From: Escherichia coli
GTDB taxonomy: Bacteria > Pseudomonadota > Gammaproteobacteria > Enterobacterales > Enterobacteriaceae
Direction: 5' to 3' (one strand)
Length of the DNA stretch: 7,579 nt
Assembly: GCF_003334305.1 (NCBI RefSeq)
Contig: NZ_QOWS01000045.1
Every line of letters begins with the position of its first letter. Within the stretch, counting starts at the first letter, position 1. A model generated the notes under the pieces. That model was not told the origin of the DNA and ran no database searches. It saw nothing but the letters and a program-made list of their open reading frames with translations. This document shows positions 527 through 6,838 of the stretch, piece after piece. Made by a program: the position numbers and the translations under genes.

Positions 527-766
527 CTAACGTCGCATTACCCATTCATTCAGTTCTGACTCCAGCCAGCCAACGGATTGCCTTCCCAAGCGTTTTTGTT
601 TTGGAAATGTTCCATCGTAGCGTGGCGATTTTGGATTAAGCCAGTCGTATATGGTTGAGCGTGAAATTCCCATTTTTTTCATGACATCTTTTAGCCTCAA
701 GATCCTCGGTGAATCAGGAATATTTGCGTAACTGGATGTATGTAAGGAGGGAGGGTTCTGTAACAT
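527..766 (-). CDS. alpA: AlpA-family (phage/island) helix-turn-helix transcriptional regulator / excisionase-like protein
   Basis: The translation contains RILRLKDVMKKMGISRSTIYDWLNPKSPRYDGTFPKQKRLGRQSVGWLESELNEWV, which closely matches the AlpA (Phage_AlpA) core as I recall it (RILRL...TIYDWL...FP...GWxExExxEW). There is an AAGGAA Shine-Dalgarno about 6 nt upstream of ATG 764..766. It has about 12 extra N-terminal residues compared with my recollection of E. coli AlpA, so the exact start is uncertain. Confidence 0.8.
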   Translation of the reverse strand: MLQNPPSLHTSSYANIPDSPRILRLKDVMKKMGISRSTIYDWLNPKSPRYDGTFPKQKRLGRQSVGWLESELNEWVMRR

Positions 767-1992: not shown

Positions 1993-2025
1993 AAATGGGC
2001 CTGCATTTTGCAAGAAGGCCCATTT
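1993..2025 (-). terminator. Candidate intrinsic terminator hairpin (AAATGGGCC - 15-nt loop - GGCCCATTT) closing the minus-strand cassette
   Basis: A 9-bp perfect inverted repeat starts 4 nt after the stop of the 2029..2343 ORF. On the minus-strand transcript it is followed by ACAUAAUUAUUUU (a moderately U-rich tract). It sits between convergent genes. Confidence 0.35.
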
Positions 2026-2028
2026 ACG

Positions 2029-2343
2029 TCAGGGGTAAATTATATATCCCATAATCGCACAGATTAACCGGTAATCACTCACGTAGAAGATTTCCGGATT
2101 CTCAGTGCTTTGTTCACCGATAAAGAAGACTTGAGCTCTCTCTTTAGCTTTTTTATTTACTGCTTCTTTTGCTTCTTCCTGCACAGTTTCAAGCTCATTC
2201 AAAAGCATAGTCTTTTTTGGCTTTTGACCAGTCTCCCCACTCAATGTGTAGTTTATAGCTACGCGAGGGCTTAAACTTACCAGATTCGTCTTTTGCCCAT
2301 TCTCCCGAGAGCGGAATGACAATTCGGTTTTCGTCTTGCTCAA
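2029..2343 (-). CDS. hypothetical small protein; either an independent or translationally coupled ORF (alternative ATG at 2206..2208 gives 59 aa) or the frameshifted C-terminal part of the 2195..2941 gene
   Basis: The ORF overlaps the preceding 248-aa ORF by 149 nt in a different frame. The annotated start is a TTG with no clear RBS. An internal ATG at 2206..2208 overlaps the upstream stop (ATGCTTTTGAATGA), a typical coupling arrangement. The ORF ends 4 nt before the terminator hairpin. Confidence 0.3.
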   Translation of the reverse strand: MSKTKTELSFRSRENGQKTNLVSLSPRVAINYTLSGETGQKPKKTMLLNELETVQEEAKEAVNKKAKERAQVFFIGEQSTENPEIFYVSDYRLICAIMGYIIYP

Positions 2344-2941
2344 ATTTCTGCCATAACAACTGCGAATAAAAAACTCGGCGCTCAGGGTAGGGTTGAACCG
2401 GGTCTTTTAGTTTTTTAAACACGGTCATGTAAGTATCGGCATTAATACCTGGGATATTTAATGACATACCACGGTCATACGGGAAGCGAATAAATGCCCT
2501 ACAAATCTGGCGAATAGCATTAACCGGGCGGCGGGATTGCCGCGCTGGAGCATTTCCCCCGCTGGATGCTGACGATGTAGAACGTATTGGATTGGTGTTG
2601 TTGTCGCTACCAGTAGTGCCAGGATCAACAACGGGTCGTTGTTCAATCAATTTTAACCCTGCGGGCATCAAACCCGGTGCGCTGTCTAGCATGTTGCGGA
2701 CGCTTTTTTTCTGTCCCTGCTTAACCACTGTGCTTTCAGCATCTGCATCACAGTTAATATGCTCTTTTCCAGGCATTTTATTAAACGACGGTCTTTTCTT
2801 ACTTCCTTTTTGCCAAGCGGAAGGATACATCTCAATCCCACATCCCCAGCATACGTAACCGTTCGTATCTACAACATCAAGTAACCAAAGATCTTCTGCC
2901 TCAATAATCTCACTGGTATATTTATTACGTGCAGATTCCAT
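2195..2941 (-). CDS. hypothetical protein with N-terminal Cys/His cluster (CWGC...HINC, zinc-ribbon-like), a low-complexity S/T/G/N-rich linker and a C-terminal domain; probable accessory gene of the upstream NTPase
   Basis: Very strong RBS (AAGGAGA 5 nt upstream of ATG 2939..2941). It starts 45 nt after the stop of the 1283-aa gene on the same strand, consistent with an operon. The CxxC...HxxC spacing was read from the translation; no family is recognised. Confidence 0.65.
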   Translation of the reverse strand: MESARNKYTSEIIEAEDLWLLDVVDTNGYVCWGCGIEMYPSAWQKGSKKRPSFNKMPGKEHINCDADAESTVVKQGQKKSVRNMLDSAPGLMPAGLKLIEQRPVVDPGTTGSDNNTNPIRSTSSASSGGNAPARQSRRPVNAIRQICRAFIRFPYDRGMSLNIPGINADTYMTVFKKLKDPVQPYPERRVFYSQLLWQKFEQDENRIVIPLSGEWAKDESGKFKPSRSYKLHIEWGDWSKAKKDYAFE

Positions 2942-2986: not shown

Positions 2987-5900
2987 TTATTCAAACCGTT
3001 GTTCCAATGCCTCATCTTCCAATCGCTCACGTTCTTTTTCCTTTTCAACCCAGTCAGTCAGTTTTTCATAAACAGCTCTAGCCGACTTAGAAATGTCTGC
3101 ACGCTCGTGGGTGACCAACTGGCCTATCGCTTCAACCCTAGGTTGCATCACGTTCGCACGACTACCGAACCATGATGAAGGTGCTACGTGTTCGGCAAAG
3201 ATCTCAAGGACGGCTCGTGGCTCGGGTGAGGCTTCTAGAAATCTCAGAGCATCATCCTGCAAGCAAATAGGACTTTGCTCCCCGTCTTTTGACCATAGAT
3301 TAATACCTGAAGCGACTGAAGCCCAAACCTGAGGGTCTTTAGTGGTCCTGCACCATTCAATCAAAATATCTACATCGATTTTCGCAATAGGAGACTGATG
3401 TGAATCATCATGATTGATGAAATGCAGCCGCCTCTGTTGTTGATCCTCCGTACCATCAAAAATGCGACTGAGAAATTCTTTTGGCATCCATGCAGCGGTG
3501 ATACCGATAGCGTCTTCGAAAGAATAAATGTAGCCAAAATGCTCATCAACAACAGCGAAGATTGTATTCAGCCATTCTAGCTTTTCAGCCTCGTTGCCAT
3601 CGAAGCGCAATGTGGCATCGATAACACGTTCCATTGCATAATCCAGATATCCGCCGAGATCGTTGTGATCTCTTTGGAACCTCTGGATTGCAGCGGATAT
3701 TCCGATTGTTCGTAGCGCAAGACCTAGTGTATCCGTAGCATCTCCTTTATCAGCTAGTTTCATACTCAGTGCTTCCAATACTACTTCATCACCATTCGGT
3801 TTACTCAGCAGCCTTTGAGCTAGCTCGAGGACCCTGCTTTCTGGCAAATTAGAGAATTGCTCACCCCACAGAATTGCCCCATACATATGGGGCTGTATGT
3901 CAGAGTCATCCAGAAGCGACATGCAACGATCCAGATCGATTTCAGTAAACTCCTGCCAAGGATGAAGGTTGACTAATTCGAATCGAAGTTCGGAATGTTG
4001 TGCACACTGATCGAGCAGTTCCTGCGCTAATGCTGAATCGATAGAATGAGTCTCTTCAATGAAACCTCGAATGACCGAAACATCACGTTGAGATTTGTGT
4101 TGTAGATCCAATTGAATGACTAGTTGTTGCCAATAAATTCGTAGGTCAGGAGCCCCGTTAGCTAAGCCTTTACCAAATTCGACGCGATACGGCATTCCAT
4201 CCCGCAAAAAAAGATTAGGGCACAACTCATCAAGTCCATGGGAAGATACTGCAAATTCGTGCCCCAACTTGAAAGCTTTGGCACAAAGTATTTTCCTGAT
4301 TTCACTGAATTTATTAGTTCCTTGGTGCTCATAATCAGCATCTAGAGCCCAAAAATCGCGCCTATTACTGAGTACATAAGCCATGATTGCCGAAACCAAG
4401 TCTTTAGGTTCTAATTCTCGTTCCAATGTCACAAGTATTTCCGGCAATGGTTCTACGTCTTCGTTATCTTTTCTTTTTGTATGGAAAAAGTAGATTGTTG
4501 AGCGGACAGCTTTCCAGCCTTCACCCCAAGGGCGATGGGCATGTAACTTACGAGCCGCATCAATTAATTTTGACCTTATTCCTCCATGACGCCAAATCCA
4601 GCGAAATTTATCAGCCAAGATCCGCCTGGCATCATCTTCAAGCTCGGGCACTCCTGAGGTTCCTAATCTCACCAAAATATCGATGAAGGCGAATAGCCAC
4701 GCAACAAGTTCATCGTAACTGGGTCGAAATCCATAATCTCTTGGCCTAGCACCAAACTCATTAATTCCGAATCCTGTCCACGGAGGTCCGCCGAGAGCAG
4801 TTTCAAGCATTTCGATCCCCATCCTTCTACGTTCGGCCATACTTGAATCAATGCATTCATTCATGATCGCAACACGTTGTTCTAAAGAGGCATGGGTACC
4901 GGATAGATAAGGTTGGAAAAACCTCTTTATCTTATTTCGAGCCGAATCATAATTATTGCTCGCGCTTTCCTGGTCTGCGATACGGATTAAGAGCTTAATG
5001 CATCGTTCAAAGTATTTCGATTCATATGCAAGTAACTGCAACAATTTGATAATTGCTGTTCGTTGTGGGTTGTAGCGTGATTTAAAATGCTCAAAATTAG
5101 ACGTAACAAGCGTTTCTTCAATCCTCTCAAGCAAAGCTCCTGGGGCAACTGGAGCGATATAATTTAGAATGCGTGTCGATACATCATCTAGGTCTATTAT
5201 TTTTCCAAGCAGCCCTTCGGGCTGTAACCAAGCTTCAACAATCTCTTTAGCCACAGCATGGCTATGCAATAGTCCCAACCTGTGCGCGAACGACATCAAT
5301 AATCGTTGCCGATCCGGAGCTTCAAAGGTCGTTCTAAGTTGATCAATCGGAATACTATTAAGTGCAGATGCTGCCAACTTGTTAGCAATGGCATGGGGAA
5401 GGATGGCTCTCCAGTGGGATCTTTTCTGAACAATGTGACGTTCCATCAACTTCGTAACAGCTTTGAATAACTGGATTTTGGGATACCCAGAGAGCACACC
5501 CAATATTTCCAGTTCATCGGTAGCTGCATCTGGACTAGATATCGAGAACGAATACACCAGTGACAATATTTCAGCTTGCTCCCGTAAATGGCCGTCGGGA
5601 TGATTACGTTGTTCAAACAAGCGATTAAACAACTGCGCATCTGAAAGTAGGGCTAAACTCTCACCTTCTTCCACTCTTTCCGCTATAGCCAAAGCCACTC
5701 TTGCATTCCCATCTGCGAACTCTGCAATCCGACGGGCATTATTCTGACCAATAGAAGGGAAGCGACGGATAAGAAGTTGCTCTGCCACGTCTGGACCATC
5801 TGTCTCAATGTGGATGACCTCAGTTGTCTGTGGTTTGTCATCCCTAATGTCGTACTCGATCGTGATGAGACTTACTTCTTTCCCTGCGGCTGATACTTTG

Positions 5901-6838
5901 CTGGCAAGCGAAGCATGGAGTTCTGATGGGCAATTATCAAGGATCATAATTGCTCGCCGGCCTTCAGCGAGCAGGTTATCAAGCATTGCTGTAGCCGACG
6001 GTACTGGCTCATAGCCAGTATCAACATAAATAGCTACTGTTCGGTCAAGCGCATCTGTTCCAACAGTTTCATCAAAGAGCGCCTGAACGATTCGAGTCTT
6101 CCCAACACCAGACAATCCTGTAATACGAACAGCCTTGTTTGTCGAACGGATCAGTGCTCGCATTGGGTTAATTGCTTCATCAATTTTGAGTTTTTGCCCC
6201 TTTCCCGATGGTAAAGTAATGGTTACGCCTGGGGCTGAGATTAAAGTGTCTATAACACCTTGTGGTGGATTGCTCCAGGCTCCGTAGGGTTGCCAACCGG
6301 AATACCCTTGCCCAAGCTTTGCTTTTACCCACAGCATGACTGATGGATGTTGGCGCAACCATTGGATGAGTTTGGAGCGGTCGTAGAAATCAAGATGAAG
6401 ATAACTTTCGTTAGGATCATCTTTTACTGCATCCCTCATCGCTTTGAGACGATCCTTCTTTCCTGACGGCGAGCAATCATCACCCAGGCTGACAATGATG
6501 TAACTGCCTTGCTTTCTGGCTTGTTCAGAAATGATGGGAGAAAGTGCTTTGCCGGTGCCAATTTCCCTCTCAATTGCAGACTTAGGCATCTTATGTTTCT
6601 TTGCCTGAAAGACCGTATCAGGTCTTACAAGAAAGCCTGCTTTCAGTTGATCAATTGGAACCTGAACATGGATGTCAATTCCTCCGTCAGGGGCTGTAAT
6701 TGAACCAGACCAATTTACACATGCTGGGCTATGGCCGTGCATTGCCACTTCAGCTTCTGCTAGCCGAGCGATCAGCTCTTCCAGCTGGATATCGGAGAGC
6801 CGAAGTAATTCGTCCTTTTCAATGTCAAAGATTGCCAC
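2987..6838 (-). CDS. Large multidomain defence-type protein: N-terminal Mrr-like PD-(D/E)xK nuclease domain + STAND/AAA+-type P-loop NTPase + long C-terminal helical (probable sensor) region; Avs-like antiviral STAND candidate
   Basis: A 1283-aa ORF with no internal stop. The Mrr-like signature is DGGID (aa 51-55, nt 6674..6688) plus QAK (aa 78-80, nt 6599..6607). Walker A GLSGVGKT is at aa 241-248 (nt 6095..6118), Walker B IMILDN around aa 297-302 (nt 5933..5950) and a GNAR lid/sensor-like motif at aa 377-380 (nt 5699..5710). The remaining roughly 850 aa are predominantly helical-looking sequence. The start is a GTG with an in-frame TAG 12 nt upstream and a weak SD, so the start codon is uncertain. 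Confidence 0.85.
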   Translation of the reverse strand: MAIFDIEKDELLRLSDIQLEELIARLAEAEVAMHGHSPACVNWSGSITAPDGGIDIHVQVPIDQLKAGFLVRPDTVFQAKKHKMPKSAIEREIGTGKALSPIISEQARKQGSYIIVSLGDDCSPSGKKDRLKAMRDAVKDDPNESYLHLDFYDRSKLIQWLRQHPSVMLWVKAKLGQGYSGWQPYGAWSNPPQGVIDTLISAPGVTITLPSGKGQKLKIDEAINPMRALIRSTNKAVRITGLSGVGKTRIVQALFDETVGTDALDRTVAIYVDTGYEPVPSATAMLDNLLAEGRRAIMILDNCPSELHASLASKVSAAGKEVSLITIEYDIRDDKPQTTEVIHIETDGPDVAEQLLIRRFPSIGQNNARRIAEFADGNARVALAIAERVEEGESLALLSDAQLFNRLFEQRNHPDGHLREQAEILSLVYSFSISSPDAATDELEILGVLSGYPKIQLFKAVTKLMERHIVQKRSHWRAILPHAIANKLAASALNSIPIDQLRTTFEAPDRQRLLMSFAHRLGLLHSHAVAKEIVEAWLQPEGLLGKIIDLDDVSTRILNYIAPVAPGALLERIEETLVTSNFEHFKSRYNPQRTAIIKLLQLLAYESKYFERCIKLLIRIADQESASNNYDSARNKIKRFFQPYLSGTHASLEQRVAIMNECIDSSMAERRRMGIEMLETALGGPPWTGFGINEFGARPRDYGFRPSYDELVAWLFAFIDILVRLGTSGVPELEDDARRILADKFRWIWRHGGIRSKLIDAARKLHAHRPWGEGWKAVRSTIYFFHTKRKDNEDVEPLPEILVTLERELEPKDLVSAIMAYVLSNRRDFWALDADYEHQGTNKFSEIRKILCAKAFKLGHEFAVSSHGLDELCPNLFLRDGMPYRVEFGKGLANGAPDLRIYWQQLVIQLDLQHKSQRDVSVIRGFIEETHSIDSALAQELLDQCAQHSELRFELVNLHPWQEFTEIDLDRCMSLLDDSDIQPHMYGAILWGEQFSNLPESRVLELAQRLLSKPNGDEVVLEALSMKLADKGDATDTLGLALRTIGISAAIQRFQRDHNDLGGYLDYAMERVIDATLRFDGNEAEKLEWLNTIFAVVDEHFGYIYSFEDAIGITAAWMPKEFLSRIFDGTEDQQQRRLHFINHDDSHQSPIAKIDVDILIEWCRTTKDPQVWASVASGINLWSKDGEQSPICLQDDALRFLEASPEPRAVLEIFAEHVAPSSWFGSRANVMQPRVEAIGQLVTHERADISKSARAVYEKLTDWVEKEKERERLEDEALEQRFE

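Follow-up and report, generated by a model that had tools for sequence, protein, structure and literature searches.

A hairpin between convergent genes as the likely terminator of the Avs8 (PD-lambda-4) unit in an Escherichia coli island

The hairpin that separates two convergent genes at positions 1991-2027 of the window (the whole stretch of 7579 nt analysed here) is real, statistically significant and evolutionarily maintained. It is most likely an ordinary, unannotated terminator: we put at roughly 60% the probability that it serves as the Rho-independent (intrinsic) terminator closing the minus-strand unit Avs8A-Avs8B (PD-lambda-4), and it may act on both strands. Speaking for this reading are that it is the best fold of the window, that only 1 nt parts it from the last stop codon on the minus strand, and that its minus-strand tail is the U-richer of the two. 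Speaking against it are a tail that starts with AUAA, a 13-nt spacer, a stem base rich in A-U pairs, and the fact that a simple terminator scan did not list it, presumably because that scan takes loops of 3-8 nt only and allows no bulges.

The Avs8 island and its intergenic hairpin

The window matches, at 100% identity, a chromosomal island of some 130-150 complete E. coli genomes, among them ECOR29, 55989 and strains of O104:H4; in strain 2014C-4135 the island occupies an IS-rich region near ssrA. It is >99.9% identical over ~145 genomes, that is to say, nearly clonal. Its minus strand encodes Avs8A (PD-Lambda-4_A; 2987-6838), a 1283-aa STAND NTPase with an Mrr nuclease domain that matches its PADLOC profile from end to end (1-1283 of 1283, E = 0), and then, toward the hairpin, the two pieces of Avs8B that are considered below. 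Avs8A of the window is annotated as WP_000963924.1, the accession of the ECOR07 Avs8A of a recent preprint (bioRxiv 10.1101/2025.07.02.662641), which renamed PD-lambda-4 as Avs8, described it as a STAND NTPase by which major capsid proteins are sensed, and reported Avs8B to be dispensable for defence. The sequence-only reading had spoken of a "defence operon", correctly: PADLOC and the accessions identify the minus-strand genes as this known system. Converging on them is a plus-strand gene for a hypothetical protein of 293 aa (880-1761; open reading frame and annotation), which stops 229 nt before the hairpin. Its product has no family match in Pfam, PHROG, NCBIfam or PADLOC, and in E. coli the gene is present only together with this Avs8 block.

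The hairpin is built on a perfect 12-bp inverted repeat, GTAAATGGGCCT (1991-2002) and AGGCCCATTTAC (2016-2027), with 13 nt between the arms; as transcribed from the minus strand, and as located by the inverted repeat together with RNA folds, the 5' arm reads GUAAAUGGGCCU (2016-2027) and the 3' arm AGGCCCAUUUAC (1991-2002). In the loop region (2003-2015, where minimum-free-energy and centroid structures agree) GCA (2003-2005) pairs with TGC (2009-2011), in plus-strand letters, to form an inner 3-bp helix that leaves a 4-nt bulge; along the minus-strand RNA one meets the bulge UCUU (2015-2012), the helix GCA (2011-2009)/UGC (2005-2003) and the AAA triloop (2008-2006). Seven of the 12 stem pairs are G-C: five in a contiguous GGGCC/GGCCC core, the other two being the outermost pair and one that adjoins the inner helix. 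The lowest six pairs are mostly A-U.

The 37-nt element folds with an RNA free energy of -19.4 kcal/mol, the same on each strand. Folded within 81 nt of its surroundings, the minus-strand RNA reaches -20.9 kcal/mol (z = -3.8; none of 200 shuffles did as well) and the plus-strand RNA -22.6 kcal/mol (z = -2.55). When both strands of the window were scanned in sliding 40-nt windows (15,080 of them, with a background of mean -5.2 and sd 3.2 kcal/mol), the hairpin was the most stable fold of all, at -21.1 kcal/mol; among 200 Markov-1 simulated windows only one contained a perfect inverted repeat as long (>= 12 nt, spacer 3-20 nt). The folding-energy calculation that had been proposed as a check thus finds a stronger hairpin than was described. 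The perfect 9-bp stem noted before (1993-2001/2017-2025) is there, as the inner part of the longer one, and it does stand where the two genes converge, with the last open reading frame of the minus strand directly before it; its distance from the stop codon, given as 4 nt, has to be amended, for the TGA that ends the C-terminal reading frame of Avs8B (2031-2029, minus strand) leaves 3 nt to the 9-bp stem and 1 nt to the full one.

The sequence belongs to this locus and to no other. A 56-nt query (E <= 10) hit 148 places spread over 147 genomes, every one of them this locus, so that the hairpin is single-copy per genome; none of the 147 E. coli genomes shows a change in it. In an island so nearly clonal this is to be expected, and variation within the species is uninformative. 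Like REP and BIME elements, the hairpin is an extragenic, GC-containing palindrome in a 3' UTR between convergent genes, but it occurs once per genome and lacks a REP-like consensus; it is not a member of that class of dispersed palindromes, which can be ruled out. So can a known structured RNA family: the Rfam 15 covariance models give no match at 1991-2027, even at E <= 1. A candidate minus-strand promoter overlapping the hairpin (TTGCAA-16-CATAAT, 2013->1986) was also rejected, since it matches at only 9 of 12 positions; promoter-like matches in the window number 15 vs 17.5 in shuffles, which is chance level.

The two strands differ in what follows the stem. On the minus strand it is AUAAUUAUUUU (1990->1980, as read from the sequence), which has 7 U in 11 nt, is free of G and C, and holds 5 U in the 8-nt windows that start 1 or 2 nt past the stem. 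This tail opens with AUAA, and its sole U-run (UUUU) lies 8-11 nt downstream of the full stem. On the plus strand GUCAGGGG comes after the stem; the tail GUCAGGGGUAAA has only 1-2 U of 8. The estimated energy of a 9-nt RNA:DNA hybrid is -5.3 kcal/mol for the minus-strand tail vs -15.1 kcal/mol for the plus-strand tail (by nearest-neighbour parameters after Sugimoto et al. 1995). That the minus strand has a U-rich stretch and the plus strand no U-tract had been remarked from the letters alone, and both remarks hold good. (A technical note: a score of the d'Aubenton-Carafa type, computed with ViennaRNA energies, was set aside as uncalibrated, since rrnB T1 and lambda tR2 came out negative in it; of this calculation only the relative T-scores for the full stem are given, 1.16 on the minus strand vs 0.57 on the plus strand.)

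The terminator scan found no other terminator-like site between Avs8A and the 293-aa gene, and its pass over the region downstream of that gene found no canonical terminator for it: what lies there, at 1789-1826, is a weak hairpin with a long loop and UUUGAAAUU after it. The earlier statement that the 293-aa gene is without an obvious intrinsic terminator is borne out to that extent. Base composition also differs by strand: the plus-strand 3' UTR of the 293-aa gene is G-rich (C/G = 0.63), and minus-strand RNA beyond the hairpin is C-rich and G-poor (C/G = 1.59). Also between the 293-aa gene and the hairpin lies a 15-nt tandem repeat, ATTGTTAAGATGACT (1882-1916; 2.3 copies, 85% matches). Two short open reading frames that touch this region were set aside: one of 54 aa on the minus strand (1842-2006), unannotated, whose start lies inside the hairpin loop without a Shine-Dalgarno sequence, and one of 52 aa on the plus strand (1786-1944), also unannotated.

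Set beside the intrinsic terminators of E. coli, the hairpin has a stable stem-loop with a GC core placed directly after the last open reading frame of a unit, an A/U-only, U-rich stretch on its 3' side, and an A-rich stretch on its 5' side that pairs with the first U residues. It departs from them in that its U-tract is interrupted and its stem base is A-U rich: where a typical loop has ~3-8 nt there is a 13-nt spacer, partly closed by the 3-bp inner helix, and where a U-tract of ~7-9 nt would abut the stem there are 5 U in 8 at a distance of 1-2 nt, in a tail that opens with AUAA. Termination here is probably partial, of modest efficiency: this is what one should expect of a proximal tail AUAA, an A-U-rich stem base and a long spacer.

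In the sequence of events that we propose, RNA polymerase would run past the stop codon of the B gene; the nascent RNA would fold into 12 bp plus the inner 3 bp at about -19 kcal/mol; the RNA:DNA hybrid over AUAAUUAUUUU, consisting of A/U pairs only, would be weak; and polymerase would pause and release, with transcript 3' ends predicted at ~1980-1990. Read-through RNA would be untranslated and C-rich, and Rho could finish what the hairpin had begun. Termination at this place would shield the convergent 293-aa gene from antisense transcription. The act of termination, and its efficiency, we infer; the structure, its statistical significance, its position, the asymmetry of its tails, its homology and its partial covariation are there to be read. 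If the reading is right, the transcription unit of Avs8 (PD-lambda-4) has its 3' end at the hairpin, and knowing this may be of some use in cloning the system with its native signals and in RNA-seq of ECOR07, 55989 and O104:H4 strains; the practical value is small.

The interrupted Avs8B gene

A full-length PD-Lambda-4_B gene is not met with in the window: the gene is split into open reading frames of 248 and 51 aa. The N-terminal fragment (2195-2941, minus strand; WP_000443183.1) matches residues 1-245 of the 303 in the PADLOC profile (E = 2.1e-164), and the C-terminal fragment, a separate 51-aa coding sequence (2029-2184, minus strand), matches residues 254-303 (E = 5.5e-24). The break is a +1 frameshift in a run of six A residues (2213-2218; minus strand GCCAAAAAAGAC) where the intact allele has A5. 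With one A fewer, an open reading frame of 303 aa, the length of the PADLOC profile, is restored, and intact homologues are continuous across the break (...WSKAKRT..ELEAAQ..). The intact A5 allele is carried by 3 of 148 complete E. coli genomes; in FEX669 it is annotated as a 303-aa coding sequence and is followed by an identical hairpin. As judged from these alignments, the stop codon that adjoins the hairpin is the end of a pseudogene fragment. Ribosomes translating the A6 allele should therefore stop at 2197-2195, leaving ~165 nt of untranslated RNA before the hairpin.

Might the frameshift be a programmed one? A perfect 8-bp inverted repeat (2199-2206/2220-2227, TCAAAAGC/GCTTTTGA) brackets the A6 run, and the frame-A stop codon comes directly after. 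Programmed frameshifting is nevertheless unlikely, because the run is short, there is no known stimulator, and the shift needed is +1.

WP_000443183.1, the truncated form, is the protein named ECOR07 Avs8B in the Avs8 preprint (bioRxiv 10.1101/2025.07.02.662641), and no mention of the frameshift was found in the Avs8 literature searched. What has been called Avs8B (248 aa) is then the front part of a frameshifted 303-aa gene, which fits its dispensability and argues against its being a component of the system. Other B genes that are linked to Avs8A are broken as well, independently and in other genera, by an insertion of the IS3 family in one locus (L016) and by truncation in three (L011, L015 and L018), the B gene lying at ~5001-5800 in each of these four. 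Intact B homologues (301-316 aa) are found without Avs8A, beside Qat, ABC-three-component and other systems (the loci listed with this intact set are L002-L004, L006-L010, L012, L013 and L017). B thus has the look of a module of its own and not of a part of Avs8. Its repeated breakage beside Avs8A, if that is what has happened, would explain why Avs8B could be dispensed with, and the frameshift is likely to be of more use to the defence field than the hairpin itself.

What B might do is not made obvious by its sequence: the repaired protein of 303 aa has no match in Pfam, PHROG, NCBIfam or among PDB sequences. Four residues that are invariant in the alignment of B proteins, C31, C34, H61 and C64, look like a zinc-binding motif. 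An AF2 model (mean pLDDT 66.7) is disordered over residues 69-142 and has a beta-rich C-terminal half, for which Foldseek returned weak matches only (E ~0.01), to OB-fold ssDNA-binding proteins; no function is claimed on that basis.

Homologous hairpins behind B genes in related loci

B genes of related bacteria permit a look at the history of the hairpin. Scanning with the B-protein alignment, one genome per species, yielded 18 loci, to which three divergent E. coli loci were added by BLAST. Wherever the next gene is convergent there is a GC-rich hairpin right behind the B stop codon: in nine of nine such loci, the window and eight relatives (L002, L004, L005, L010, L012, L013, L014 and L016). 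Where the next gene is co-directional the hairpin is absent, in six of six (L003, L006-L009 and L017). A further locus, L020, has a hairpin that overlaps the stop codon, with its next open reading frame co-directional at +115.

These hairpins share a common form, TGACGTAAA...GGCCTTC-loop-GAAGGCC, to which the arms of the window's hairpin can be aligned; the window has in common with them (L002, L004, L005, L010, L013, L014, L016 and L020, in other enterobacterial islands) a place just past the stop codon of B, the TGACGTAAA context on the 5' side and the GGCC core. Paired changes are found in the stem: GGCCAC/GTGGCC in L012 and ..TCTC/GAGA.. in L004. RNAalifold recovers the stem, with changes on both sides in 4 of 8 pairs, and the covariation score of 0.289 compares with 0.192 in shuffles, 4 of 500 of which reach it; slid controls are all lower. 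For an alignment of ten sequences this is modest but consistent evidence. The structure has evidently been maintained where B meets a convergent gene, as the comparison among loci suggests and as would be expected of a terminator, and the window's hairpin would descend from one conserved after B-type genes that converge with another gene.

The direction in which these hairpins point is another matter. Read along the B strand, eight relatives have an A-tract before the stem (GUAAAAAAA in L016, for instance, or GAAAAAGA in both L002 and L013) and non-U sequence after it; the U-tract is therefore on the opposite strand. By its flanks, then, the hairpin of the relatives looks like a terminator of the convergent gene, which is of yagK/yfjJ type or an integrase gene. 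The window is the exception. An A->C change has broken its upper ancestral stem (GAAGGCC -> GCAGGCC), 7 bp have been added at the foot of the stem (GTAAATG/CATTTAC), and an A/U-only, U-rich tail faces the B/Avs8 side. Its 12 perfect pairs make a stem longer and more stable than any relative's (-19.4 vs -9.5 to -17.5 kcal/mol among those that bear a hairpin). The window's hairpin looks to have switched polarity relative to its relatives; a terminator of convergent genes that has turned towards Avs8 in this island would be the apter description. With the U-tract on the opposite strand in eight relatives, the window's minus-strand tail could also be fortuitous.

What became of the ancestral convergent partner? 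A possible degraded 3' end of a yagK/yfjJ-type gene (inovirus Gp2 family) can be traced by DNA alignment at 1934-1985 on the plus strand. This segment is colinear with the 3' end of the yagK-like gene of L016, at the same offset from the hairpin (z = 4.3; 0 of 500 shuffles); its alignments to the yagK-like genes of other loci have weaker scores, and the FEX669 allele is slightly closer to the relatives' yagK-type genes. tblastn with YagK/Gp2, YagM and YagL proteins finds nothing in 1762-1990. That 1934-1985 is a decayed yagK remnant is accordingly probable but not established.

It is tempting to suppose that the working direction of the terminator has been handed over between convergent genes, and that the hairpin belongs to the "B" module and not to Avs8 proper; we offer this tentatively, at well short of even odds. 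The yagK or integrase gene may have decayed to ~50 nt, the stem may have been rebuilt downwards, and the U-rich tail may have come to face Avs8. The comparison offers a neat case of a convergent-gene terminator that keeps its place as its sequence and its apparent polarity alter.

Competing explanations

Could the palindrome also end plus-strand transcription, that of the 293-aa gene, and so be a bidirectional terminator? It might do so by way of the short AUUUAC stretch found past the GC core on either strand, or else by positioning the collision of RNA polymerases, as described for convergent E. coli gene pairs. One hairpin stands between two convergent genes and forms equally well on both strands, its flanks are symmetric (AAAU-GGGCC...GGCCC-AUUU), and it is the sole strong structure in the interval, in which the 293-aa gene has no canonical terminator; the G-rich plus-strand 3' UTR would be a poor Rho substrate, and the homologous hairpin of the relatives has its U-tract on the plus-equivalent strand. 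A preprint, in the passage that cites Ju et al. 2019 (bioRxiv 10.1101/2022.10.23.513370), describes convergent E. coli gene pairs as having non-classical terminators, and the bidirectional terminators reported there resemble the window's hairpin in being one palindrome between convergent genes that forms on both strands and has A/U-symmetric flanks. Unlike them, the hairpin has a U-rich distal tail on a single strand, and its distances from the two genes are unequal, 229 nt and 1 nt. Past AUUUAC, moreover, the plus-strand tail GUCAGGGG makes a very stable hybrid, the distance to the 293-aa gene's stop codon is long, and a collision mechanism needs transcription of both strands. We consider a bidirectional terminator possible but the less likely case, and a terminator of the Avs8 unit remains the preferred reading. 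The hairpin could also be a mere leftover: the terminator of a lost yagK/yfjJ-type gene that has no role in termination now and at most protects mRNA 3' ends from exonucleases after Rho-dependent or run-off termination. The alignment of 1934-1985 with the 3' ends of the relatives' yagK-like genes, the relatives' U-tract facing the yagK-type gene, and the damage to the ancestral upper stem GGCCTTC/GAAGGCC all suit such a history. Decay, however, predicts something other than a stem that is more stable than its relatives', and the lower stem and the A/U-only tail are new on the Avs8 side; a leftover of this kind is improbable.

A perfect 12-bp palindrome might instead act as DNA, bound by a dimeric regulator or recombinase, or it might mark a recombination breakpoint that edges the exchangeable defence cargo: the homology of the window to the L005 Avs8 locus does end at 1994, within the distal arm. 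But neither the window nor the rest of the genome holds a second copy or a related site, terminators are commonly found at module edges anyway, and among the relatives the arm sequences vary while their pairing is kept, a sign that selection acts on the structure and not on a recognition sequence. A DNA-level site is, on this evidence, very improbable. As for a functionless inverted repeat thrown up by chance, nothing specific recommends it beyond the AT-richness of the region; set against its rarity in simulated windows, its first rank among all the folds scanned, and a position right after the stop codon that is conserved in relatives, it is hardly credible. A terminator that closes the Avs8 unit is what we are left to prefer. 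The sequence-only reading, that the hairpin likely terminates the defence operon, survives in its location, in the defence genes before it, in its minus-strand tail, and in that no canonical terminator was found for the 293-aa gene; it is weakened by the poverty of the U-tract, by an adjoining stop codon that comes from a frameshifted fragment, and by relatives whose U-tract is on the other strand.

The hairpin at 1991-2027 has a near equal elsewhere in the window. The second strongest local hairpin (483-490/497-504, AACCGGGG/CCCCGGTT, ~-20 kcal/mol) lies on the far side of the 293-aa gene, ~20 nt downstream, on the minus strand, of the stop codon of a gene annotated as an AlpA-like HTH/excisionase (527-766, minus strand), and is followed by UUUGCUCC; it is probably the terminator of that gene.
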